DNA from: a virus
Lineage: Duplodnaviria; Caudoviricetes
Direction: 5' to 3' (one strand)
IMG/VR virus record: IMGVR_UViG_3300037851_000284
Span: 1 to 64,000 of that record
Length of the DNA: 64,000 nt
In this document: positions 3,662 to 58,899 of the stretch, one piece after another
Numbering within the stretch: the stretch's first letter is position 1
How the letters are laid out: each line of letters starts with the position of its first letter
Notes under the pieces: generated by a model
Told to the model about the DNA's origin: nothing
The model's database searches: none
What the model saw: the letters and a program-made list of their open reading frames with translations, nothing else
Translations under genes and position numbers: made by a program

Positions 3662-4156
3662 ATGACACAGCTAGCTGTATTTGACGAAAAGACCATGTTA
3701 ATGTCCACAACCATTAAGTCATTCAGAGCTTCAAGGGGACTGAGTCAGTCCGCATTTGCCAAATCGGTGGGATGTAGCCCAGCACAAATTTCAGTAATGG
3801 AAAGAGCAAAGACAAACCGCATTACTCCAACAATGTATAAAACCTTATGTGATGCGGGACTTGACCTAAAAGGACTTGTCCCAAGTTTGATAATAGAACA
3901 AATCCGAGCAAAAACAGTGAACTTTTCTAAGAAGTCAGACTTGTCTGTACCATTGAAAAGAAAGGATCCAATCAAGCTTCTATGTCATGCTCGTGACTTG
4001 GTTAAAGAAGCAAACGATCTTATCAACTCAAAGTTTGCAAAGGTGGATATGGAAATAGAAGAACATAGAAAGGCGATATTCGAAAGAGAAAAATTCAAGG
4101 AAGGAATAATAAAGGAAAAGCAGGCATGTCTAGATAATATCCTCTCAATTGTATAA
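3662..4156 (+). CDS. XRE-family HTH protein with C-terminal coiled coil
   Basis: RASRGLSQSAFAKSVGCSPAQISVME HTH; RBS aggag. Confidence 0.75.
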   Translation: MTQLAVFDEKTMLMSTTIKSFRASRGLSQSAFAKSVGCSPAQISVMERAKTNRITPTMYKTLCDAGLDLKGLVPSLIIEQIRAKTVNFSKKSDLSVPLKRKDPIKLLCHARDLVKEANDLINSKFAKVDMEIEEHRKAIFEREKFKEGIIKEKQACLDNILSIV

Positions 4157-17313: not shown

Positions 17314-17398
17314 GGGATTGTCACCTAGTGGTAATGGTAACAGCTTTTTAAGCTGTCGAGGGTAACCTCTACCGTAGGTTCAAATCCTATCGGTCCCA
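17314..17398 (+). tRNA. tRNA with Lys anticodon (TTT) and long variable arm
   Basis: gggattg/cggtccc acceptor; acagc-tt-TTT-aa-gctgt; gagg-gtaa-cctc variable stem. Confidence 0.85.
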
Positions 17399-20980: not shown

Positions 20981-21330
20981 GGGGCTGAACTGATTCGACT
21001 AGTGTAAAACGTATTAACCATATACGGTGGTTGGTAGGATGGCCACCATAAAATCCTACAATTTACAGACGACGATGCAGAATATGCATATCAGTTAGCT
21101 GCCTAATTGAAGGCAGCGAAAGAAATAATAAGTCTGTGATTATTATTTCTACAAACACACAGATAGGGTAACCGAACGGATATTAGAGAAGGGGACCAAA
21201 GAGACGTATATCCAACATCTTGTTATCCAAACTGTGAGAGACAAGATGAAATATTCACAGTTTAACGTATATAAGTAAAGTTAATACATGTAGCATCTAG
21301 GACGGGAGCTCAACCTCCCCAGCTCCACCA
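20981..21330 (+). ncRNA. ssrA: tmRNA; tag (A)DDDAEYAYQLAA at 21068-21106
   Basis: GGGGCTGA 5' end, cagctccACCA 3' end with G3-U pair, pk1-like stems, tag ending LAA-stop. Confidence 0.93.
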
Positions 21331-21335
21331 ACTTA

Positions 21336-21369
21336 TAAAGGGTGGAATTAAAACTTCACCCTTTTATTT
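21336..21369 (+). terminator. terminator after tmRNA
   Basis: aaagggtgg/ttcaccctttt stem plus T tract. Confidence 0.7.
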
Positions 21370-21564
21370 AATTGGCGGGAAATGCTTCACTCTTTGGAAA
21401 TTATAGGGCGTGTAAAACGAGTAAGAATGTTGACATCCCCAATCGGATTGTATCTGATTATGGGTTGCAACTTTTTTCGTGAACAAGAACACGCCTTTAC
21501 ATTGCAGCAATTATCAGCCATTTAGCAGACGTTGGCCGAAATAAATTTTTCTCTTGGGGGTTAT

Positions 21565-21765
21565 ATGGGCTATCTTGGTTCCAATGTCAACGAGGATTAT
21601 TATTCATATCAATTATTGGAAGTAGTTGCGAAGCAAATTGATGATAATGACACAGGTGATTGGAATAAGCTCCAAGATAGCCTGACCGCTGTCGTAGAAA
21701 AATTTACATCAGCCAACAAACGCATTAAGCAAGGGCTAAAGCCACATGCGAAGCGCACGTCTTAA
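21565..21765 (+). CDS. cassette 1 ORF, hypothetical
   Basis: RBS ggggg; reads through attC1. Confidence 0.6.
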   Translation: MGYLGSNVNEDYYSYQLLEVVAKQIDDNDTGDWNKLQDSLTAVVEKFTSANKRIKQGLKPHAKRTS

Positions 21766-21782
21766 TGCGTCACACGTTGGTG
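21711..21782 (+). other. attC-like site 1
   Basis: AGCCAAC; acgcattaag/cttaatgcgt; GTTGGTG. Confidence 0.85.
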
Positions 21783-21830
21783 TAAATGCCACTTGCCTTT
21801 TGAATTATAGGCGGTGGCAAAGGAGATAAA

Positions 21831-22055
21831 ATGTATAGTTTACCTATTGAAGATATGGCAATTGCCACCGCAGAACATTTTAGGAAGGCGAGTGGCACAT
21901 CCACCAACAACGCAAGGGATGCCATTGCCGCATGGGATGAATATGTTAAGTATCATCGTTCTTATAGCGGCCCTGGTTCTTTTATAGAGTCGGATGAAAA
22001 GTGTAAATATTGGTTTATTCTTGGTTATAGTGCGGCAACAGCACCCGTTGCGTAA
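21831..22055 (+). CDS. cassette 2 ORF, hypothetical
   Basis: RBS aaggag; two thirds lies inside attC2. Confidence 0.6.
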   Translation: MYSLPIEDMAIATAEHFRKASGTSTNNARDAIAAWDEYVKYHRSYSGPGSFIESDEKCKYWFILGYSAATAPVA

Positions 22056-22064
22056 ACGTTGCAC
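21902..22064 (+). other. attC-like site 2
   Basis: CACCAAC; acgcaaggg/cccgttgcgt; GTTGCAC. Confidence 0.85.
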
Positions 22065-22106
22065 GCAATAGCGGCCTGAATTTTTAAGCGCGGCGAAAGG
22101 AATAAA

Positions 22107-22472
22107 ATGAAAAAAGTAGTATCAGAATTTATCAACGAAGTCGAGCATATGCTTTCTTGTTGGGATGCCCCGTCATCACAGTCTTGGAATAGAGCATCTA
22201 AGTTATTCGAGGAAGCAAGAAAAGAAATCGCCGCGCAATGTGGTACTCAGGCCGCTACAGTAGCTGCCGTTCCGTCAGCCGCGCAACACGGCCAGCCTGA
22301 AATTTGCCAGCACGCCGAATTGCTCTATTCGCGTTGTAAGTGCACTATTAAAAATTCAATTAACTCCGAAATGTATACTTGCGATGGTAAAGGTCAATAT
22401 ACGGTTGTAAAAAATCTCGGTTACGAATACAGTTACCAGTGCGGTAAAAGTGCTGGTAAACTTCAGGCGTAG
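22107..22472 (+). CDS. cassette 3 ORF, Cys-rich C-terminus
   Basis: RBS aagga; reads through attC3. Confidence 0.65.
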   Translation: MKKVVSEFINEVEHMLSCWDAPSSQSWNRASKLFEEARKEIAAQCGTQAATVAAVPSAAQHGQPEICQHAELLYSRCKCTIKNSINSEMYTCDGKGQYTVVKNLGYEYSYQCGKSAGKLQA

Positions 22473-22484
22473 CCGGCGTTAGCG
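22281..22484 (+). other. attC-like site 3
   Basis: GCGCAAC; cggccagcctgaaatttgccagcac/gtgctggtaaacttcaggcgtagccg; GTTAGCG. Confidence 0.85.
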
Positions 22485-22521
22485 GCAATACCGCCGAGTC
22501 TTAACTTATAGGAGTTCGCCG

Positions 22522-22788
22522 ATGAGTGCAAACGAATCTTTTGAAGCCTTCGCCGAAAGGTTTTATAAAAAATATGGCTTTTTGCCTTTAGGCAAAGATG
22601 ACCCGTGCCGACCTTCTGCCGAAACAATTCTTGCCCGTTTAGGTGAGACATTCGGCGAACTCGAACGGGCGGAATCGGCGGTACGTGCCGCTAACAGGCC
22701 AAGTACGCCATGCTCTGCTTGTGGTCGTGACATGGAATGCCCTAACGGTTGTCAAGCTACGCATCGTAGCGGCATTGTTTTAATGTAG
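22522..22788 (+). CDS. cassette 4 ORF, CxxC...CxxxC tail
   Basis: RBS aggag. Confidence 0.65.
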   Translation: MSANESFEAFAERFYKKYGFLPLGKDDPCRPSAETILARLGETFGELERAESAVRAANRPSTPCSACGRDMECPNGCQATHRSGIVLM

Positions 22789-22818
22789 CAGCACGGCGCA
22801 CTTTGTCAACCGTTGGTG
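22689..22818 (+). other. attC-like site 4
   Basis: CGCTAAC; ggccaagtacgccatgct/agcacggcgcactttgtc; GTTGGTG. Confidence 0.8.
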
Positions 22819-22873
22819 GAAATGCCGTGCCGAGTCTTTGTACTTAGGTGCGGCTTTTTAAAAAGGGGATTTT

Positions 22874-23080
22874 ATGGCTTATTCACCGTTTGAGGAATCA
22901 CAAGAGTATCACGATAGCGTGGCTGGCCGCACAGTAAAAAAGGAGTCGGCACAGCACATACACCAACACGGCCAGCTTGCAATGCCTGGCATTTGTCCAG
23001 ATTGTAACCGTTATCTATTATCGTGTACCCGTCCCGGTGTATTACAGTGTGATGATTTTAAGTCGGCACTGCAAGCGTAG
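22874..23080 (+). CDS. cassette 5 ORF, Cys-rich tail
   Basis: RBS agggga. Confidence 0.65.
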   Translation: MAYSPFEESQEYHDSVAGRTVKKESAQHIHQHGQLAMPGICPDCNRYLLSCTRPGVLQCDDFKSALQA

Positions 23081-23095
23081 CCGGGAACGTTGTAA
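22961..23095 (+). other. attC-like site 5
   Basis: CACCAAC; cggccagcttgca/tgcaagcgtagccg; GTTGTAA. Confidence 0.85.
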
Positions 23096-23143
23096 GCCAT
23101 TGCTGCCCGGCTTTTAAAATATAGGCGCGGCGAAAGGAAAAAT

Positions 23144-23368
23144 ATGTCTCGACATTTTATTAATATGGAATCATGGTTTCCTATCATAATTCAATATGAC
23201 ACAGGAGAAATTTTTAAGTGTAATTCTCCATCAGAAATTATAAATGGTAAATCGTTTCGTGTTTTAGATACAAGATATGCCGCGCATGACATTAAGGAAG
23301 CCGGGCAGAACGGGCTTACAACAACCGTATGCCAAAATGCGGCTGACACTAAGGAATCGGGATTGTAG
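23144..23368 (+). CDS. cassette 6 ORF, hypothetical
   Basis: RBS aagga. Confidence 0.65.
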   Translation: MSRHFINMESWFPIIIQYDTGEIFKCNSPSEIINGKSFRVLDTRYAAHDIKEAGQNGLTTTVCQNAADTKESGL

Positions 23369-23398
23369 GCCGCACTTCGGCATACTCTTCCGTTGTTT
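23316..23398 (+). other. attC-like site 6
   Basis: TTACAAC; gtatgccaaaatgcggc/gccgcacttcggcatac; GTTGTTT. Confidence 0.85.
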
Positions 23399-23434
23399 GC
23401 AATTTCGCTCTTAAATTTATTATAGGAGTTTACC

Positions 23435-23717
23435 ATGACAAATGAGGTTGCTGTACGAAAAATGGAACAATATTTTGAAGGGGCATTGCTGAATCGTGAA
23501 GTTGTGGAAGCATGGCAAACTCTGAAAGCCGCTGTACTCGCTCAACAGACAAACAACAGCGTTAGTGCGCCATGTGAAATATGTAAGTATTCAAAAGACA
23601 AACAACAGCGTTAGTGCGCCATGTGAAATATGTAAGTATTCAAATGAAGCTGCTGATATGTACCCATGTGAGGATTGTTGCCATTGTGGTAACGACCATT
23701 TCACACAGCGCACGTAA
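23435..23717 (+). pseudogene. cassette 7 ORF frameshifted by a 49-bp tandem duplication
   Basis: RBS aggag; stops at 23614; without the duplication it would read ...PCEICKYSNEAADMYPCEDCCHCG...QRT-stop at 23717. Confidence 0.65.
23547..23644 (+). repeat. 49-bp perfect tandem duplication of the R''/L'' half of attC7
   Basis: agacaaacaacagcgttagtgcgccatgtgaaatatgtaagtattcaaa x2. Confidence 0.95.
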
Positions 23718-23731
23718 CGCAAACGTTGCAC
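23551..23731 (+). other. attC-like site 7
   Basis: AAACAAC (x2); gcgttagtgcgc/gcgcacgtaacgc; GTTGCAC. Confidence 0.8.
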
Positions 23732-23772
23732 GCAATAGCCGGTTGCAAACTTTATTGAAAGGGCGGTTTCTA

Positions 23773-24069
23773 ATGTCCAAAGCTAATACGTTGCCACCTA
23801 CTGAGATTTATGATGTTTTACATAAAGCTGAAGCGGTTAATATTATTATTCCAATGTCTGTTGATAAGTGGTGGAGAATAGAAACCGCCATAAATCAAGG
23901 AGCGCAACCGGCTACAGTAGCTGCCGGTGAACCGTCAGCCGTGCAACAGCTAAAGGCTGAAATTGCCGCAATTGCCGATAGATTACAGGGGTTCAATGAC
24001 TGTCCAGATGGTGGTTTTAACGACATTCAGGATTATATCAACCGCTTGCAGCAATTATCAGCCGTTTAG
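23773..24069 (+). CDS. cassette 8 ORF, hypothetical
   Basis: start MSKANT after aaggg; reads through attC8. Confidence 0.65.
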   Translation: MSKANTLPPTEIYDVLHKAEAVNIIIPMSVDKWWRIETAINQGAQPATVAAGEPSAVQQLKAEIAAIADRLQGFNDCPDGGFNDIQDYINRLQQLSAV

Positions 24070-24081
24070 CAGACGTTGGAG
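23941..24081 (+). other. attC-like site 8
   Basis: GTGCAAC; gctaaaggctgaaattgc/gcaattatcagccgtttagc; GTTGGAG. Confidence 0.85.
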
Positions 24082-24086
24082 GCAAT

Positions 24087-24392
24087 ATGGAGAATCTTGA
24101 AATTATGTGCGCCGCCGATGGACCAGCGAAATGCAGTTTCGGGCCGTGGCGTGGAACTCGCGAAGAAGGCTGGTGCGATTTTTTCAACATGAAACAGCCG
24201 TATCGTTTGCCTCCGGGCAAGGTTTGTAAATATGCTGATGGCAAGGAATCTGTAGCGGCGGCGCAAAACATTGCGGATATTCGCCATACAGCCTCCAACA
24301 GGCAAAGGGATGCCATGCCTCAAATAGAACTTGACTTTGGTGGTGTCTTCGATGGGTTCAGTGTTCAAAGCGACGCTGATCCAGGTTTGTAA
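24087..24392 (+). CDS. cassette 9 ORF, hypothetical
   Basis: RBS ggagg is part of the R' box. Confidence 0.65.
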   Translation: MENLEIMCAADGPAKCSFGPWRGTREEGWCDFFNMKQPYRLPPGKVCKYADGKESVAAAQNIADIRHTASNRQRDAMPQIELDFGGVFDGFSVQSDADPGL

Positions 24393-24423
24393 GGGCACGG
24401 CACCCGTTTGCCGGACGTTAGCG
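24293..24423 (+). other. attC-like site 9
   Basis: CTCCAAC; ggcaaagggatgcc/ggcacccgtttgcc; GTTAGCG. Confidence 0.85.
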
Positions 24424-24479
24424 GCAATTAGCTCGGCGGCCATTTAATAGGCCGGGCGCAATTCAAAGGAGCAAACAGT

Positions 24480-24680
24480 ATGCGTCTTGAAGATGCTATT
24501 GATAAGTGCCATGTAAGGTCGGCGGTCTATCGCAAGTCAAATCCGAGTGTGCGGTACTGGAAAAATAATTCGCAGTCAATCCTTGAGCGCGTGCCAGATG
24601 AAGACCGCCTTGCAATGGATTGGGAGGAGCATGACCCACGCGACGAAGATGACGGGTCTTTGTTCATGTTCAACGACTAA
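24480..24680 (+). CDS. cassette 10 ORF, hypothetical (stops before its attC)
   Basis: RBS aaggag. Confidence 0.7.
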   Translation: MRLEDAIDKCHVRSAVYRKSNPSVRYWKNNSQSILERVPDEDRLAMDWEEHDPRDEDDGSLFMFND

Positions 24681-24719
24681 GAGCGCCCGGCAGCATAATA
24701 GGAGCGCCGAGCCAACAGC

Positions 24720-24795
24720 CGCTAACACCTGCATGGTGGCTCGATGACTCGCGCAAATGCCGAAGCGGCACTTCACCATGCAGGGAACGTAAGAA
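24720..24795 (+). other. attC-like site 10 with damaged R'
   Basis: CGCTAAC; cctgcatggtg/caccatgcagg; R' reads gtaagaa, consistent with a 3-nt loss from gttgtaagaaataaa (compare 26888). Confidence 0.7.
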
Positions 24796-24938
24796 ATAAA
24801 GGTTGCTATGCTCATTGGATGTGCCAGCTACTACGAGTCCAGTACGGTGCACCGTAGACTGATACCGTCTTCATGTAGCCTTGTTGGGCACGGCAACCGA
24901 TTATCAAACGTTGCAATTTGTAAATCTTTGGAGGTTAT

Positions 24939-25001
24939 ATGCCCGGCGAAATCAAACCGTGTCCGTTCTGTGGCAGCGTCGAAGCTGGTATGCAGTCATA
25001 A
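24939..25001 (+). pseudogene. truncated Lar-like KPCPFCG fragment in remnant cassette
   Basis: RBS ggagg; MPGEIKPCPFCGS then early stop. Confidence 0.4.
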
Positions 25002-25237
25002 CGGCCAGCGTGCGTTGGTCAAACGTTGTAAGTTCGCTTCGCATATTTTCCGCTCTTTTAATTTCTGGGCGCATTGATAGCACAATCGAGTGTGATTATC
25101 GGTGAGGTTGGATAACAGAGTGCGTCTGCCAACCAATAATAATGCCCCGCTCGGCCCGTACCTATCCGATGGTCGTGGGACTGGCAACAGTGTAATCGGG
25201 CCAGTGCGCCATTTGATATTGTAGAGCGAAAAATACT

Positions 25238-25305
25238 ATACAACAGCCAAAGTATGTTCGCTTCGCAAATTGTTTCACAACTTCATACTTTGGCACATGT
25301 TGAAT
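25238..25305 (+). other. attC-like site (cassette starting 25025)
   Basis: ATACAAC; gccaaagtatg/catactttggc; GTTGAAT. Confidence 0.8.
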
Positions 25306-25319
25306 TGGAGGAGGTTGCT

Positions 25320-25571
25320 ATGTGGAATCATTCAGAGGGTTTGCCACTAAGAGATTTTTTCGCTACGGAAATACTCAAGAGGCTTATGTTGCGTTATAGG
25401 CAGCCAGGATACTCAGATCATGCCGCTATCAACGAAGCGTATCAGTTAGCTGATTATATGGTGGAGTGTCGGAAGTCCGCAACTGCAAAAACAGCGGAAT
25501 CGAGCCAACATCCACCAACAGCACCATGCCAAAACACCATAGGAAATTATGGTTGTGAAAATATGTTATAA
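25320..25571 (+). CDS. cassette ORF, LRD(F/Y)FA...AY..AD.M family phage protein
   Basis: RBS ggagg; recurrent phage motif. Confidence 0.65.
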   Translation: MWNHSEGLPLRDFFATEILKRLMLRYRQPGYSDHAAINEAYQLADYMVECRKSATAKTAESSQHPPTAPCQNTIGNYGCENML

Positions 25572-25601
25572 TGGCGCATCAGCATATCGCAAACGTTGGC
25601 T
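25513..25601 (+). other. imperfect/hybrid attC-like site
   Basis: CACCAAC and aaacGTTGGCT present but L arms pair poorly. Confidence 0.5.
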
Positions 25602-25704
25602 TTTTGAGTTATAGGTCGCATAAGAAAGGAAAATATGAAGTCTTGGATGATTAGAACGGATCATATACTTATGAACACGCGTTCGTATACCAATACTCAG
25701 TAGA

Positions 25705-25956
25705 ATGGAATATCTAATGGAATCAGAAGAACAACGCAAATTATATGAAAAAGAAACTGGGAAACATTGGTTGAACACATTTTCTTGTTTTGGTCCGTCT
25801 GTTGAGTATGTAGAATGGTTGGAAGACAAAATTGCTACACAACAATACGACGCCATACCATGTAATCAGCACGGAAAACAGTCATCGGTTATATCGGTGT
25901 GTCCTACTGGAAAATTTGAATGTGGCCTATCTCCGTGTATGATTACACGAAGTTAG
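25705..25956 (+). CDS. last cassette ORF, hypothetical
   Basis: EKETG...YVEWLE; QQ at R''-like ACACAAC; Cys-rich tail. Confidence 0.55.
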   Translation: MEYLMESEEQRKLYEKETGKHWLNTFSCFGPSVEYVEWLEDKIATQQYDAIPCNQHGKQSSVISVCPTGKFECGLSPCMITRS

Positions 25957-26105
25957 TGGAGAATAAGTACATGAAAATTCTACGTCGAACTTCTTATAGT
26001 CCTATCTAGTGTTTGTACTATAGGTTTAATACTATTTGGTATATTTTACATCACAGTATCTCTAGATGGCAAAAGCAAAAATCTTAATAAAGATAAATAT
26101 AATAA

Positions 26106-26814: not shown

Positions 26815-27036
26815 TTTATTTATAATGAATATTATCAAAAAAAGAAAATGTGCCGTTGGATGAAGTATATACTTTTATATGCACATAGTTGTAAGAAATA
26901 AACGTGTTCCTCAAAAATGTTCAGCGCGGGACGGATTATTGATGATGCCGAAGCAGGGTTTGTCGGACATTTTTACCCCAAACGTCTCACCGAATTATAA
27001 ACCGCGCCTATCAAATTCAAAGAACACGTTTATTTC

Positions 27037-27095
27037 TTACAACAACCGTGTTACGCAAGCCCAAAGTGGCCAGCGCAACACGGTGAACGTTGTGC
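27037..27095 (+). other. 59-bp attC-like site
   Basis: TTACAAC; accgtgttacgc/gcgcaacacggt; GTTGTGC. Confidence 0.88.
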
Positions 27096-27130
27096 AAAAG
27101 TTTTAACGCTTTGAAATTGTAGGAGCAGCG

Positions 27131-27403
27131 ATGAAAACGAAAGAAGAATTGATATTTCAGGCTTTAGGTGCAGCGTCAATGTGTTGGACTGGTGCGCCGT
27201 CAGGTACGTTTGATATAAACAGGTGTAAACAGATAGGTGACGAACTAATCGCCGCCCTGGAAAATGCGGAGGCGTTAAAACCTTCGCACAACAGCGCCAG
27301 CCTGTTATGTGATGACTGTATACATAGTCATGGAAATTATTGCCTGCTGGGTGTTAATCACTGTATTCGTGCGGCAGAAGATTTTTACACACGAAAGGCA
27401 TAG
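27131..27403 (+). CDS. array-2 cassette ORF, Cys-rich tail
   Basis: RBS aggag; reads through attC. Confidence 0.7.
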   Translation: MKTKEELIFQALGAASMCWTGAPSGTFDINRCKQIGDELIAALENAEALKPSHNSASLLCDDCIHSHGNYCLLGVNHCIRAAEDFYTRKA

Positions 27404-27414
27404 CCGCGTTGTAG
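27286..27414 (+). other. attC-like site
   Basis: GCACAAC; gccagcct/aggcatagc; GTTGTAG. Confidence 0.7.
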
Positions 27415-27509
27415 TCAATACCGGCTCCGATTTAAGTGTAATACAAAGCGTACAGTATTATGCTGCAAATGTTGGCTATAATTTACCATGTTAAAATAAG
27501 GAGAAATAA

Positions 27510-28228: not shown

Positions 28229-28318
28229 TGCACAGTCGAGAAGTCCGGTCTATCTCACTGGTTTCATATGCCAGCGCTCTTAACGAGCTCGAAGGTTCAA
28301 ATCCTTCCTGTGCAACCA
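28229..28318 (+). tRNA. tRNA-Met-like (CAT) with long variable arm, encoded CCA
   Basis: tgcacag/ctgtgca; ctggt-tt-CAT-at-gccag; gctc-ttaac-gagc variable stem. Confidence 0.85.
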
Positions 28319-29183: not shown

Positions 29184-30362
29184 ATGTTGGTTTTACAGCA
29201 AACAAGCGAGGATAGTCGAATGAAGAGAAAGATTTTTGGTCCATTGTATGCAAAAGCAAGTAATAGTAAGATTAAAATGTGGTCATGTACGGTAGTACAG
29301 GAAAAGGATAAAACTACATTAAACGTCACTCATGGATATCATAATGGAAAACAAGCAGTTGATTCTAGAATGGTAGAGCCAAAAAATGTTGGAAAATCTA
29401 ATGAAACTTCTCCTTGGGATCAGGGCTTATCAGAAGCAGAATCCAAGATGAAGAAAAAGATGGACGAAGGATATGTAGATGAAATAGAGAAAGTTTCAGA
29501 TGTAGCAGTACAGCTTCCAATGTTGGCTAATAAGTATTCTGAGAGAAAGCATCTTGTTAAATGGCCTTGTTATGTAAGTCCTAAATTAGATGGAGTTAGG
29601 CTTCTAACAAGATTCTCCTTTGATGGAAAAAGTCTAGGAGAACCCGAATTTGTATCCAGAAAAGGTAAGATATATAGCTCCCTAAAGCACATGAAGGACG
29701 ACGTAGACAAGTTACTTGGTTATATATCCATTGGTGACGGAGAGGCGTATAATCATACATTGTCGTTACAGGAAATAAGCGCAGCCACAAAGAAAGAAAA
29801 TGAAGACTCGTCCTCAATAGAATACTGGCTATTTGATATAGTGGACATTAAAGAACCATTTAATGTCAGGTTATCAAAGATTAAAAAGTTCTTTGACGAG
29901 AACTCCAACGGGAAAAACGAATTTGGATTTAGAAAATACGGTTGTATCATAGAAGTCCCAGAATATCTAGTAAGAAATGAAATTGAACTAGAACAACGAC
30001 ATAAAGACTTTGTTAAGATGGGTTTTGAAGGAACTATAGTCCGAAACAGGGACGGAATGTATATTCTAATACACAGGTCAAATGACCTGCTGAAAAGAAA
30101 AGATTTCCTGGAAGAAGAGTTCGAAGTTATTGGAGGAAAAGAAGCTACAGGGAATGATGTAGGAACGATTGTCTTCAGACTTAAAACGAAAGACGGAAAA
30201 GAATTCGAAGCAAGACCAAAGGGATCAAGAGAAAAACGAAGAAAGTGGCTTAAGGATCTAGACAAGCTTATTGGATTAAAAGTGACAACTAGATACCAAT
30301 TACTGTCTGATAACGGCACACCATGCCAAGCAAGGGTAGTCTGTGTAAGAGACTACGAATAA
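29184..30362 (+). CDS. ATP-dependent DNA ligase (start probably 29220)
   Basis: PMLA, PKLDGVR, DGEAY, FD, EGTIVR, LLKRK, OB domain. Confidence 0.92.
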   Translation: MLVLQQTSEDSRMKRKIFGPLYAKASNSKIKMWSCTVVQEKDKTTLNVTHGYHNGKQAVDSRMVEPKNVGKSNETSPWDQGLSEAESKMKKKMDEGYVDEIEKVSDVAVQLPMLANKYSERKHLVKWPCYVSPKLDGVRLLTRFSFDGKSLGEPEFVSRKGKIYSSLKHMKDDVDKLLGYISIGDGEAYNHTLSLQEISAATKKENEDSSSIEYWLFDIVDIKEPFNVRLSKIKKFFDENSNGKNEFGFRKYGCIIEVPEYLVRNEIELEQRHKDFVKMGFEGTIVRNRDGMYILIHRSNDLLKRKDFLEEEFEVIGGKEATGNDVGTIVFRLKTKDGKEFEARPKGSREKRRKWLKDLDKLIGLKVTTRYQLLSDNGTPCQARVVCVRDYE

Positions 30363-30745
30363 AGCTGGGAAAACTATCAAGATTATACGGCCGCTTTAAC
30401 CGAGTACGACAATCTAGTCAAAGGATGGGTCTAACAGTTATGAGAAAATTAATTCTACTACTACTCCTTTTCCTTTCTTGTACTGTATCTCAAAAGACAT
30501 GTCTAATGGATATACAACCAAGCAACTCAATATATTATGGAGAACCTAATCTAGAATTAAATTGGGTCCCAATTAGAGTAAGCTCTTTTGGTATAACTGT
30601 TTGTTATCAAGAAAAGTATGGACAGGCCAAAACAATCCAAGCCATAGGACTCTGGGAATCCAAGAGTGAGTATCGAATCACATTCAAAGGTCCAGAGTTC
30701 ATTACCTTACAGAAGGCTAATGTAATATCTATTGGAGTTGAATAA
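30323..30745 (+). CDS. putative exported/lipoprotein (start probably MRKLILL)
   Basis: basic-hydrophobic signal then SC. Confidence 0.5.
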   Translation: MPSKGSLCKRLRIKLGKLSRLYGRFNRVRQSSQRMGLTVMRKLILLLLLFLSCTVSQKTCLMDIQPSNSIYYGEPNLELNWVPIRVSSFGITVCYQEKYGQAKTIQAIGLWESKSEYRITFKGPEFITLQKANVISIGVE

Positions 30746-40297: not shown

Positions 40298-41776
40298 ATG
40301 AAAGCGAATACAAGTGCTGAAGGACAGGGACTATCCAAGATAACCGACGGAGTAGTTCTAAATAAAGAAGGAGCAGTGGCTTACGCTCTGAAGGATAAAG
40401 AGAAACTAGTCACAGGTATTTTAACGAACTTCTTTAAAGAGCCTAAATTTTATGGAGATAATACCCCTGAGATAATCGAGACTGCCCGTAAGATTATACA
40501 GGAAGATCCAGAGTTCGTGGCAAAGGCAGCGTGCTTTGCACGTAACAAGTTTCATATGAGATCCATCTCTCATGCTCTTTCCGCCGAAGTAGCAAGAGGG
40601 GCAAAGGGGAATAAAATTGTCCGCAAGATGATCAGAAAAGTCATTGAGCGGGCCGATGATATGACTAACATTATATCATATCATATAAACACATGGGGAA
40701 AGCGTGGGAAAGAAAATCCTATTCCAAGAGGACTTCGAAGAGGTCTAGCCGATGTGTTTCCTCGGTTTGACGAGTATGCACTGGCAAAATACAAAGGAGA
40801 GAGCAAAACCGTCAAACTGCGTGACGTTCTCAAAATGATTCATCCCACTCCAAAGAATAAGGAGCAGGGTGAAATGTGGAAGCGTCTTATTGAGGGAACG
40901 CTGGCTACTCCTGAGACCAGAGAGACAATACTCTCTGATAAAGGACAGTCAAAGGAAGTATGGGAAAGTATCCTAGATGGTAAAGCGGGATACATGATGA
41001 TACTCCGCAACTTGAAAAATATACTTGAGCATGGTATAGATGATACTCATCTAGATAAAGTGTGCTCTCTATTGAAGGATCCTGATGAAGTTCGTTCCTC
41101 AAAACAACTTCCGTTCAGATTCCTTTCCGCATACAGAATGGTTCAAGATATGGGCAATCCGAGAGGAGCAAAGGTATTAGAAACTCTGGAAGATGCTCTT
41201 CTAACATCGACCGAGAACGTACAAAAGCTAAAAGGAATAACTGCTGTACTGACAGACGAATCAGGATCAATGACTCGTCTATTATCAAAAAACTCGTTAG
41301 TTAGGTACAGAGATGTTGGTAATTTGTTGGCAGCCATTTCACACAGAATATGTGATAGTTCTGTTATTGTCCCCTTTGGCACAGATGCTGTAGTATTAAC
41401 ACTTTCTCCTAGATCAAGCGTATTTGATAACATGAAGAGAATGAATAGTTCTGGTGTTGGCCACTCAACCAATGTACACATAGCTCTAGGAAAAGCATTC
41501 TCTGTAAATGTAAAAATAGACAGGATAATCCTGTTCTCAGATATGCAGGCTTATGGATGCTCAGATGGAATAAATTCCATGGTTCAGAACTACAGACGTG
41601 ATAAGAATTCCAACTTATGGGTACATTCTGTAGACCTAGCGGGATATGGAACCACCCAGTTAACGGATAAAGTTAATCTGATAGCAGGATGGTCAGAGAA
41701 GATTCTAGACTACATAGGTCTCGTCGAGAACAGAGGGTTAAGTCTTGTAGAAGATATTGAAAACTACAAGCTGTAA
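40298..41776 (+). CDS. Ro60-like TROVE-domain RNA-binding protein with vWA domain
   Basis: NKEG..AY, EPKFY, KYKG, TPETRE, MMILRNL, QLPFRFLSAY, DESGSM, FSDMQ, GWSEK. Confidence 0.92.
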   Translation: MKANTSAEGQGLSKITDGVVLNKEGAVAYALKDKEKLVTGILTNFFKEPKFYGDNTPEIIETARKIIQEDPEFVAKAACFARNKFHMRSISHALSAEVARGAKGNKIVRKMIRKVIERADDMTNIISYHINTWGKRGKENPIPRGLRRGLADVFPRFDEYALAKYKGESKTVKLRDVLKMIHPTPKNKEQGEMWKRLIEGTLATPETRETILSDKGQSKEVWESILDGKAGYMMILRNLKNILEHGIDDTHLDKVCSLLKDPDEVRSSKQLPFRFLSAYRMVQDMGNPRGAKVLETLEDALLTSTENVQKLKGITAVLTDESGSMTRLLSKNSLVRYRDVGNLLAAISHRICDSSVIVPFGTDAVVLTLSPRSSVFDNMKRMNSSGVGHSTNVHIALGKAFSVNVKIDRIILFSDMQAYGCSDGINSMVQNYRRDKNSNLWVHSVDLAGYGTTQLTDKVNLIAGWSEKILDYIGLVENRGLSLVEDIENYKL

Positions 41777-44425: not shown

Positions 44426-44624
44426 TTTTCCTGTATCATCAATTAAGACAGGAGATATAGTACTAGAGTACATATCTTGGGATAATATAAAGAAGGTAAT
44501 GGGAAAAAGATTATACAGGAAATTTATGGAATTCATGCATGGACAGACGTGTATAAGGAAAGGAGTTTATCCTTGTGATATAGAAAACTTCCTAAGACCA
44601 CCAGACAGGAGATTTTTTGACTAA
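44400..44624 (+). CDS. hypothetical protein
   Basis: F..FM.GQT...GVYP.DIENF. Confidence 0.55.
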   Translation: MIKNPKISDFPVSSIKTGDIVLEYISWDNIKKVMGKRLYRKFMEFMHGQTCIRKGVYPCDIENFLRPPDRRFFD

Positions 44625-44711
44625 TGTCTTATAAGAGTAGAAGTAATTACGCTATTGGAATGTGTGTATCTCAGGAACAGTGGGACAAGTGGTTTCCAAA
44701 AGGAGAAAGCA

Positions 44712-45170
44712 ATGAATCTGAGAAGCGATCAACTAACACCGATACAGGAATTAGTAAAACTGTTCCAGAGCAGGAAAGAAAACATAAAAAATAAGTATCA
44801 AATAGAGGAAGAGATAACTAATCAAAATACAAGAATGATACAGTTCTTTCAGTCAGTTTTAAAACCAATAGTAAAACGGACAGGAATCGGGTTTAATCTT
44901 TGTATAGAGGATTATTGTGTTATAGCAAGTATTATGGTTATTAGAAAAGGGAATAGTAGAGTTGAACCAGAATCATTCAGGGTATCAATAACCCTTCCAG
45001 AAATAGAAGATCTACTATCAAGCGCAAAGAATTTTACTTATTATACAAGAATGTTGTATATATGGCTAAGGTATTGTAAGACACTATTGAAATTGTCGCC
45101 AAAGTTTACAATACCACAAGAATCAACAGTTACAGTTACAATAAAAACAAAGACAAGGTACTTTGGATAA
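44712..45170 (+). CDS. hypothetical protein
   Basis: RBS aggag before MNLRS. Confidence 0.6.
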   Translation: MNLRSDQLTPIQELVKLFQSRKENIKNKYQIEEEITNQNTRMIQFFQSVLKPIVKRTGIGFNLCIEDYCVIASIMVIRKGNSRVEPESFRVSITLPEIEDLLSSAKNFTYYTRMLYIWLRYCKTLLKLSPKFTIPQESTVTVTIKTKTRYFG

Positions 45171-57765: not shown

Positions 57766-58899
57766 ATGTCATTAAGCAAGGAAAAGAAGAAGGCATTACA
57801 GAAGCTAAGAGATAGTTTTTTAAAAGACAATAAGCTAGACCCAGAGAAAACCAAGATGGGGTTTCTAGATGAAAATGAAAATATTGGTAAAATAGAAAGG
57901 CTTCCCACTGGATTAATAGGATTTGATGTATTAACTGGTGGTGGTTGGGTGAAGGGTAAGATTAATCAGCTAGTTGGTGGAGAATCAGCAGGTAAAACTA
58001 CCAAACTATTAAAGTCAATAGCATACTGGCAGGATAATCTAAAAGACTTCGTAGCTGCATATATACCAGCAGAGAAGAACTTTGATCGAGAATGGGCTAC
58101 TGCCCAAGGATGTAAGGAAGATAGTACTTGGATTTATGAACCAAGATTAGCCGAGGAAAACCTAGATTTCGTAATGAAGTGCGCAGATGATAATAGTGGA
58201 GTAGATTGTCTTATTATAGATACTCTACAAGCTTTATCATCGGCAAAAGAAGTATATAAAGGTAAAAAGGCAGACGGAACCCCAGCAGATAAAGAACGTT
58301 CGGTGAATGATGATACAATGGCCTTGTTGCCAAGGCTATATTCCCAGTTTTTAAGAATGTATACTTCTAAAGCCTCTGACACTTTAACTTTGATTCTTGC
58401 ATCTCAAGTCAGAACGGATATAACATCCATGGCAAGGGACAAGGAAAAAGAAACCGGAGGTAATGCATTAAGGCATTACAATGTATTAAACGTTAAGATG
58501 ACTCGTAAGGGAGATAGCGCATTCCCAGTAAAAGAGGGCGAGAGAGCCCCACCTAATTCATATGCTGTGCAATTAACAATCACAAAATCCAAGGTGAAAA
58601 ATAGATACAAAGGAAACAAGTTATTGATGTATTTTTATCATGGATCCTTTGACCATAGGTTTAACGTTATTTGTATAGCTAGAGACCTTGGATTATGGGA
58701 TGGCAAGCATCTTGAATATGAAGTTAATGGAGAAAAAAAGGAATTCAAAGCTAGGGGTTTGAAAGAGGCCATCGAAAAGATGCCTCCAGAAGCTGTAATG
58801 TACCTAGAACCTCTACTAACCGATGCTTACACAAACTTAGTAATGAACTATATTCCCTCAGCAGACAATGATATTGACGAAGAGGATGGAGCATTATAG
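57766..58899 (+). CDS. recA: RecA/UvsX recombinase
   Basis: PTGLIGFD..TGGG, GGESAGKTT, IIDT, SQVR, GGNAL.HY. Confidence 0.92.
   Translation: MSLSKEKKKALQKLRDSFLKDNKLDPEKTKMGFLDENENIGKIERLPTGLIGFDVLTGGGWVKGKINQLVGGESAGKTTKLLKSIAYWQDNLKDFVAAYIPAEKNFDREWATAQGCKEDSTWIYEPRLAEENLDFVMKCADDNSGVDCLIIDTLQALSSAKEVYKGKKADGTPADKERSVNDDTMALLPRLYSQFLRMYTSKASDTLTLILASQVRTDITSMARDKEKETGGNALRHYNVLNVKMTRKGDSAFPVKEGERAPPNSYAVQLTITKSKVKNRYKGNKLLMYFYHGSFDHRFNVICIARDLGLWDGKHLEYEVNGEKKEFKARGLKEAIEKMPPEAVMYLEPLLTDAYTNLVMNYIPSADNDIDEEDGAL

Follow-up and report, generated by a model that had tools for sequence, protein, structure and literature searches.

Integrons are the textbook case of recombination at structure-specific, single-stranded sites, and a domain specific to their integrase, IntI, by which the extrahelical bases are read, is regarded as indispensable. 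The canonical attC site that ends an integron cassette is a hairpin of the order R''(RYYYAAC)-L''...L'-R'(GTTRRRY), in which the R box forms the base of the stem. A Xer enzyme without the IntI insertion acts on a single-stranded DNA hairpin in the case of the CTX phage, whose attP(+) is recombined by the host XerCD with exchange of one strand and resolution by replication, the whole phage genome being placed in this way into the chromosomal dif site. Here we describe an array of small gene cassettes in the virus record IMGVR_UViG_3300037851_000284 (Duplodnaviria; Caudoviricetes) of IMG/VR, the first 64,000 nucleotides of which (the window) were analyzed. The array occupies positions 21372-25951 with about 15 cassettes, all on the + strand, and two more cassettes form a second cluster between 26888 and 27440. 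With a probability of about 0.75, this locus represents the integrase-less mobile cassette array of a non-canonical integron-like system that works with a short Xer-like tyrosine recombinase.

In a passage of PMC9668308 that cites Messier and Roy (2001), the additional domain of IntI is located around patch III and described as necessary for activity, and a classification paper reports the insertion as "not fully conserved" in an "integron-like" subgroup of recombinases (PMC8138268). Clusters of attC sites lacking an integron-integrase (CALINs) have been reported in virulent phages, with two to three canonical attC sites that were found by IntegronFinder/HattCI and recombined by IntI1 (Qi et al., 2023; PMC9892861). 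The promoter early stem-loop elements (PeSLs) of T4-type phages are direct repeats composed of a sigma-70 promoter and a terminator stem-loop, which are recombined by homology and give rise to minicircles (PMC2839356, PMC4122927). No publication on a cassette platform with an insert-less, Xer-like recombinase was found in a literature search.

A first reading of the window, made from its letters alone (the sequence-only reading), had proposed an integron-like array and listed the GTT triplets at which its units begin. Every one of these triplets is present, and the units are joined by a fixed AAC|GTT core as tandem cassettes on one strand, like those of integrons; only the unit start listed at 25299 is better placed at an A|TT at 25304/25305. 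The array begins with another A|TT (21371/21372) and its last junction is GTTAGTG at 25952. The core is degenerate at junction 24789 (GTAAGAA, with a loss of 3 nt) and the leaders at junctions 24910 and 25595 are truncated. The higher GC content, which had been stated from inspection, was borne out by computation (0.40-0.51 in the array vs 0.33-0.35 in the flanks).

The main property of the units is that their first nucleotides are the inverted repeat of a segment located inside the same unit. The exact reverse complement of the start 7-mer was found within the own unit for units 2 and 4-10, and a 6/7 match for units 1 and 3 and for the unit starting at 25025, just as had been reported; since the start 7-mers occur only 1-4 times each in the 5.3 kb examined, these matches are far beyond chance. 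The self-complementarity extends over 22-40 nt, and in a 15 x 15 matrix of unit starts against unit bodies the own-unit score was the row maximum for units 1-6 and 8-10. Folded as DNA, the circle deduced for a cassette (the 3' part of the unit joined to its own first 32 nt) gives a single continuous, imperfect hairpin with energies between -28 and -46 kcal/mol, vs -23 to -39 kcal/mol for the hybrid site in the array, the circle form being more stable by 8-20 kcal/mol (-31.7 vs -23.0 for unit 1, -38.6 vs -29.0 for unit 2 and -46.1 vs -26.4 for unit 10). When 11 candidate starts were compared, the own start gave the best fold in eight of ten units and the second best in the remaining two. The feature is confirmed as real, and its self-match is stronger than the sequence-only reading had claimed.

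The site was defined on a census that comprised 63 non-redundant units, collected from about 20 viral contigs besides the window. Their selection used an anchored alignment score, by which positions 1-12 are in part imposed; the self-match result was the same in matrices (for the window and for the other contigs) whose units were delimited only by the junction motif. The junction consensus is aaaC|GTTGt..g(c/a)AAT and that of the inner box aaCA.C..aCAAC|A....aAg. The resulting stem is paired over positions 1-9 (GTTGNNNGC), is interrupted at positions 10-11 by a conserved AA/CA mismatch (paired in just 27% and 10% of the units) and is paired again over positions 12-21, where the sequence is specific to each unit. 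Pairing with the own partner was observed in 75-97% of the units at positions 5-7 and 13-21, compared with 36-49% for shuffled partners, with all four base-pair types in use at the covarying positions, evidencing a covarying hairpin that is split by the junction. Inward of the R box there are a 1x4 internal loop, 6 bp and a 1-nt bulge, the (7,0,1) class being seen 16 times and the (1,1,4) class 11 times. Units 1-10 of the window and both units of the second cluster carry the family junction, a matching inner box and the AA/CA mismatch.

These sites share with attC an imperfect AAC...GTT hairpin and an L''/L' stem, as well as a unit start that pairs with its own inverse box, although their variable positions depart from RYYY/RRRY. 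Unlike in attC, the stem runs about 20 bp past the R box, with a conserved G(C/A)AAT/ACA(G/T)C and the AA/CA mismatch, and the extra bases are on the L'-R' arm, which bears the crossover, whereas the extrahelical bases of canonical attC are near L'', opposite the crossover box (PMC5027507). Of the sequence-only reading, a cassette array with the circular-permutation footprint of insertion, here at a G|TT-type crossover in a folded hairpin, is supported, and its likening of the sites to attC is not supported as worded.

The array follows an attI-like entry site, TTATAAAGGGTG-gaATTAAAACtt-CACCC-TTTTATTTAA (21333-21371, + strand), with the crossover placed after A21371. The motif, TAT(A/C)AAAGG-stem-ATTAAAAC-stem-TTTT(A/G)TTT(A/T)A followed by |(G/A)TTG, occurs at array starts only, at 21347 in the window phage (G000), at 3819 and 10448 in G001 and at 1079 in L027; that of the window also scores as a terminator-like hairpin. 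G001 is a complete genome of 213 kb that shares 155 proteins with the window phage (85% identity in RecA), and L027 is a distant relative (49% amino acid identity in the flanking gene) whose first cassette also self-matches. The arrays of G001 lie at a different locus from that of the window, behind the same entry motif, and the locus corresponding to the window array consists there of 350 cassette-free nucleotides.

The point of exchange was deduced from the comparison of these loci. In the window (…CACCCTTTTATTTAA|TTGGCGGG) as well as in L027 the first cassette has ATT in place of GTT, while another relative, L026, has the transfer-messenger RNA (tmRNA) gene that precedes the array and no cassette, which represents an empty site. 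Homologs of unit 7 are present in unrelated phages (G002, L013) and in G001, and the similarity begins exactly at the junction. In addition, a low-depth contig from another freshwater sample (X3) is identical to the phage up to 21373, where a different cassette-like start follows. Altogether, this evidence indicates that exchange occurs just 5' of TT, as in the G|TT of integrons; the exact cleavage bond is unreadable from the sequence because GTT(G/A) is invariant.

The same architecture was found in about 20 other viral contigs, in a Cytophagales chromosome and in a Gammaproteobacteria contig. The pattern of a junction followed by TATAGG is present in 24 IMG/VR contigs, most of them with same-strand arrays, and unit starts match their own units in 14 of 16 cases in L004/G001, in all five units of L023, in four of five in L009 and in three of four in L010; further arrays were detected in L069, L097, L147 and L159. 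A promoter-independent pattern scan over 185,579 prokaryotic (bacterial/archaeal) genomes produced 114 matches, by estimate about the chance level, and only about eight loci hold real arrays. L147 is the Cytophagales chromosome, complete at 3.65 Mb, and its cassette ORFs (open reading frames) end before the inner box. Downstream of four well-defined cassettes, and on the same strand, it encodes an AAA_21 ATPase and a RloB-like protein, a defence-type pair (L147:350-2322, - strand). Putative defence-type cargo in this bacterial copy and the existence of orphan arrays are further traits in common with integrons. Short arrays of the same site type are also present in L077, L112, L139 (Woesearchaeota-binned) and L088 (a 557-kb Parcubacteria scaffold); these arrays binned to DPANN or to the candidate phyla radiation (CPR) are either genuine chromosomal loci or mis-binned viral contigs.

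The enzymes adjoining the arrays are Xer-like tyrosine recombinases of 270-390 aa. In L097 a recombinase of 288 aa (L097:249-1115) ends 17 nt before the first junction, a homolog is located directly upstream of the array in the viral contig L006 and in L147, and in the Gammaproteobacteria contig, L159, the homolog is divergent to the array. A search of IMG/VR with an alignment of five array-linked recombinases retrieved 575 relatives, and among the best 80, which were examined, an array starts 40-130 nt from the recombinase gene in about 25. As in integrons, an entry site lies beside a tyrosine recombinase of the Xer/IntI clade that is divergent in most platforms; unlike in integrons, the recombinase is co-oriented with the array in some of them (L097, L006 and L147). 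The recombinase-linked arrays follow a conserved (A/T)TACATATAnnTA|GTTA entry motif. The platforms L183/L186, L185/L181/L187 and L180, which come from five samples, agree at 99.5-99.7% identity across the 860 nt that comprise the recombinase and attI; directly behind …ATAGTTA their sequences part, and three different first cassettes follow. The cassette turnover that the sequence-only reading had suggested looking for among relatives is therefore seen in the family and not in this phage itself. In L159 (reverse strand, ~3951-4105) the cassette next to the divergent recombinase, the first of its array, has no ORF and is in effect a bare site of about 150 nt, composed of GTTGTGGCGA-14 nt-TCGCCACAAC with the L hairpin directly after.

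In the array-linked recombinases the catalytic R-K-H-R-H-Y is invariant, and their best curated match is the XerA/"integron integrase" model. They score below the cut-offs of the IntI models TIGR02249 and PRK15417, which they match in two pieces. The family profile aligns end-to-end with XerA (4a8e, 247 bits) and is split against VchIntIA (2a3v), where 17 positions stand opposite chain residues 183-243, and these enzymes therefore lack the IntI-specific insertion of about 40 aa, unlike the recombinases of integrons. The "IntI-type recombinase" of the sequence-only reading is not supported, the array-linked enzymes being Xer-sized and this phage having none. Searched by tblastn against deposited phages, the recombinase gave generic Xer-like matches only (≤39% identity). 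The platforms also differ from the CTX system in that small cassettes are stacked beside a dedicated Xer-like gene, at a site unlike dif.

A typical unit contains a ribosome binding site (RBS) and one + strand ORF of 59-121 aa. Unit 0 (21372-21530; ORF 21382-21525) is a degenerate first cassette that starts with A|TTGGCGGGAAATGC; its 3' end resembles that of unit 8 and no inner box matches its start. Unit 1 (junction 21531; ORF 21565-21765; inner box 21711-21717) and unit 2 (junction 21776, end 22057; ORF 21831-22055; inner box 21902-21908) have own-unit inverted repeats of 22 and 24 nt, respectively. They are followed by unit 3 (junction 22058; ORF 22107-22472; inner box 22281-22287), unit 4 (junction 22478; ORF 22522-22788; inner box 22689-22695), unit 5 (junction 22812, end 23088; ORF 22874-23080; inner box 22961-22967) and unit 6 (junction 23089; ORF 23144-23368; inner box 23316-23322). 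In unit 7 (junction 23392) a 49-nt tandem duplication (23548-23645), the 49-mer of which is covered at double the depth of the neighbouring sequence in the source assembly graph, doubles the inner box (23551/23600) and truncates the ORF (23435-23614). Units 8 (junction 23725, end 24074; ORF 23773-24069; inner box 23941-23947), 9 (junction 24075; ORF 24087-24392; inner box 24293-24299) and 10 (junction 24417, end 24788; ORF 24480-24680; inner box 24720-24726) come next. The decayed units 11 and 12 (24789-25024), with the GTAAGAA core at 24789, the truncated leader at 24910 and an ORF of just 20 aa (24939-25001), have no own-unit match. In units 13, 14 and 15 (25025-25951; junctions 25025, 25304/5 and 25595; inner boxes 25238-25244, 25513-25519 and ~25850; ORFs 25320-25571 and 25705-25956) the own-unit matches are weaker (scores 21 and 16), the truncated leader at 25595 being that of unit 15. 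The second cluster (26888-27440, + strand; junctions 26888 and 27089; inner boxes 27037-27043 and 27286-27292; ORF 27131-27403) is located just after two tRNA-Leu genes; its two cassettes proper (26888-27407) have own-unit inverted repeats with scores of 44 and 32, and it is closed by a remnant start, GTTGTAGTCAAT, at 27408.

The ORFs of units 1-9 read through the inner box and the L stem and stop just before the next junction, while that of unit 10 ends before the site, as in the classical cassette layout. Since different ORFs read the inner box in all three frames, this element is conserved as DNA and not as peptide. A TATAGG-like motif is located 28-31 nt past the junction in 31 of the 35 units having one, at a variable distance from the ATG (6-45 nt). 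Most of the phage cassettes thus differ from those of integrons in having their own RBS and TATAGG-like motif and an ORF that reads through the site. The cassette proteins are small ORFans, many of them rich in Cys and several with CxxC pairs near the C-terminus. Searches of Pfam and PHROGs with ten of them produced nothing meaningful, and the ESM Atlas gave no usable match for the 121-aa protein; a role of the cargo in host takeover or counter-defence is a guess.

Several observations weigh against a mobile array of this kind. No tyrosine (including the family profile), serine or Y1 recombinase was detected in the 219-kb phage record, so that the search of the genome for intI suggested by the sequence-only reading ended without a candidate, and of the 16 array-bearing viral records tested, 15 lack PF00589. 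The recombinase-adjacent (A/T)TACATATAnnTA|GTTA motif is also absent from this phage, whose entry site is a different hairpin/T-tract motif, common to G001 and L027. Because the phage lacks a recombinase, its array is an orphan (CALIN-like) and any shuffling would require an enzyme in trans. Decay is seen in units 0, 11, 12 and 15 and a duplication in unit 7, so that some of the array may be fossil or inactive. Breakpoints were found not only at junctions but also at the inner box or inside units (22284, 23601, 25043; an X3 contig has just 22284-22476, from the inner box of unit 3 to L', in common with the window, between different flanks, and the X3 variant that departs at 21373 rejoins at 25043), and site modules are common to cassettes with different cargo (mosaics), which indicates that homologous or illegitimate recombination also reshapes the cassettes. 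In the contigs of three freshwater runs, of which the assembled contigs only were searched, there was no circle or cassette-precise deletion joint; two apparent contig joints have sides of 21-23 nt and derive from a different contig, with which the array has site modules in common. An alternative division of the array into alternating hairpins, each complete in itself, can also be made, and the unit boundaries are based on homology breakpoints, ORF layout and first-cassette junctions. A protein shared by the array-bearing phages was considered as a candidate recombinase and rejected, as none is common to G000, G001, G002 and G005.

The locus might be an ordinary CALIN, that is, a piece of a canonical attC array acquired from a host and recombined, if at all, by the host IntI. 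Indeed, the AAC/GTT core, imperfect hairpins of 60-200 nt, a crossover 5' of TT and small same-strand ORFs are all attC-like, the bottom strand folds slightly better at nine of ten sites, and the GC content of the array is above that of the phage backbone. The array also resembles the CALINs of virulent phages in being an integrase-less cluster of hairpin sites between small genes (PMC9892861), and, with at least two sites in the same orientation and no integrase, it is a CALIN by analogy only, as its sites are not canonical attC. This origin appears improbable considering that every recombinase found beside this type of site lacks the IntI insertion, that the bulges are on the L'-R' arm and not near L'', and that the ~20-bp extension of the stem, its GCAAT/ACAGC and the AA/CA mismatch are foreign to attC. 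The published TJE1 phage CALIN has none of these features; it was examined as a possible member of the family and discarded, as it has neither the junction consensus nor the extended self-match. In contrast to the two or three sites of phage CALINs, there are about 15 plus 2 cassettes in this phage, with a distinct site family that has a recombinase family of its own.

A second possibility is that regulatory cassettes similar to PeSLs are shuffled by the homologous recombination of the phage, which encodes a RecA/UvsX-like protein in the window (57766-58899), and that no site-specific enzyme participates. PeSLs likewise involve small accessory genes in hyperplastic regions of large phages, repeated stem-loop modules and a proposed modular shuffling by way of minicircles, which are known in T4-type phages (PMC2839356, PMC4122927). 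The leader and hairpin modules shared among cassettes, the breakpoints located away from the junction, the lack of a recombinase in the phage and the fixed TATAGG-like motif after each junction would also be consistent with such elements. Nevertheless, a covarying stem that differs from unit to unit and is split by the junction is not what shared direct repeats predict, and promoters and terminators are not enriched: promoter-like sigma-70 sites (17 vs 15.7 in shuffles) and intrinsic terminator-like sites (6 vs 5.9) are both at the level of shuffled sequence. Nor is there an enrichment of the TATAGG-like motif in the rest of the genome (27 and 28 copies vs an estimated ~25 expected). Together with the linkage of the arrays to a tyrosine recombinase and an attI-like site, and the turnover exactly at the junction in other genomes, this makes it unlikely that homology-driven shuffling of PeSL-like elements accounts for the array. 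For the same motif, a role as genome-wide phage promoter was rejected, as there is no enrichment outside the array, and it may serve as a promoter carried by the cassette or form the outer portion of the site; a function of the junction hairpins as terminators is unsupported by the terminator count. That the GTT...AAC spans are miniature transposable elements with terminal inverted repeats of 22-40 bp, separated by unrelated palindromes, is very improbable, for although unit start and inner box resemble a classical pair of such repeats and some breakpoints are at the inner box, the ORFs start in the span and cross the inner box into the next hairpin (so that the element would split every gene), homology between cassettes crosses the inner box into L'', the reconstructed circle is one continuous hairpin, and neither target-site duplications nor a transposase are present, the linked enzyme being a tyrosine recombinase.

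For the integrase-less array of an integron-like system, which remains the preferred interpretation, the following mechanism can be proposed. The free cassette would be a circle with one long imperfect hairpin site, the first arm of which would consist of the unit-specific stem, ACA(G/T)C-NNN-CAAC, the 1x4 loop, the L stem and a variable loop, and the second arm of the L stem, (A/G)(A/G)AC|GTTG-NNN-G(C/A)AAT and the unit-specific stem. This hairpin, presumably as a folded single strand, would recombine with the entry site or with the site of another cassette by a cut just 5' of TT in the GTT box; one strand would be exchanged and replication would resolve the product. Integration would thus leave the final ~25 nt of the hairpin at the 5' end of the arrayed cassette and the remainder at its 3' end. 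Cassettes may enter the phage at the hairpin/T-tract site beside the tmRNA gene. They bring with them an RBS and in many cases a TATAGG-like motif whose spacing from the crossover is fixed, and for most cassette proteins the C-terminal half would be encoded by the hairpin itself. The array would be serviced in trans by the recombinase of a co-infecting phage or of the host, which probably belongs to the Bacteroidota. The phage itself would acquire or shuffle genes by cassette recombination, as the sequence-only reading had proposed. The host assignment, to a probable freshwater member of the Bacteroidota, is tentative and was derived from the Cytophagales chromosome, from several further Bacteroidota contigs with self-matching units or repeated junction motifs, and from the low GC content. 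In the source run (X1), an unrelated contig of 53,523 bp (depth 14) shares short site modules with the array (21749/24294, 27265-27293), from which it follows that several phages in one community carry this site family.

A broader proposition, to which we would give slightly better than even odds, is that Bacteroidota-type bacteria and their phages harbour a second and widespread kind of integron, in which a plain Xer-like recombinase captures and stacks cassettes by means of long folded hairpins that also encode the C-terminal halves of proteins. Large lytic phages would keep orphan arrays as a store of exchangeable accessory genes, probably for host takeover or counter-defence, that are taken from and given back to a common pool of these phages, other phages and host chromosomes. 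If this were the case, the logic of integrons evolved more than once or predates the IntI insertion, and these platforms would be a tractable model of how Xer-type enzymes became cassette integrases. They would also constitute a dedicated trade route for small genes among large phages, unrelated phages and hosts, and would account for the blocks of high-GC ORFan genes in phage genomes. Integron-type work would apparently be carried out without the protein domain and the site geometry that were thought to define integrons, which suggests that a class of gene-capture platforms could escape standard tools built around IntI and canonical attC.

The record that contains the window is linear and has 219,054 bp, 33% GC and an estimated completeness of 95%, and comes from a freshwater metagenome. 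Its backbone encodes 20 tRNAs, a tmRNA, an ATP-dependent DNA ligase, a Ro60/TROVE protein, AAA+ proteins, a RecA-like protein and a UvrD-like helicase. A DNA-level search against deposited phage genomes, in near and distant modes, gave no match for the array region, and no relatives of the array-flanking gene were found in IMG/VR; a scan of JGI metagenomes with this gene retrieved two short contigs only. Over the array region Rfam detected the tmRNA and tRNAs only and no attC-like family.

The tmRNA gene is located directly upstream of the array (20981-21330, + strand) and matches the full-length Rfam model RF00023 (74.8 bits, E=3e-28), although it was not called by ARAGORN. The order of tmRNA gene and array locus is the same in the relatives L026 and L027. 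Adjacency to tmRNA was discarded as a general rule, as the arrays of G001 and G002 are not beside stable-RNA genes, and the gap of G001 that is syntenic to the window locus has no tmRNA gene. The 3' end of the tmRNA, ...CTCCACCAAC, is similar to the CACCAAC inner boxes of units 2, 5 and 14.

Two more GTT...AAC anchored inverted repeats above the census threshold lie outside the arrays, at 29711-30526, mostly inside the DNA ligase gene (29184-30362), and at 44565-45127; both are probably chance matches. The Ro60/TROVE protein, which also contains a vWA domain (40298-41776; Pfam E=1.5e-34), is encoded past the block of 20 tRNA genes (14-36 kb). Two tRNAs are unusually long for their identities, a tRNA-Lys(UUU) of 85 nt at 17314-17398 and a tRNA-Met(CAU) of 90 nt at 28229-28318.

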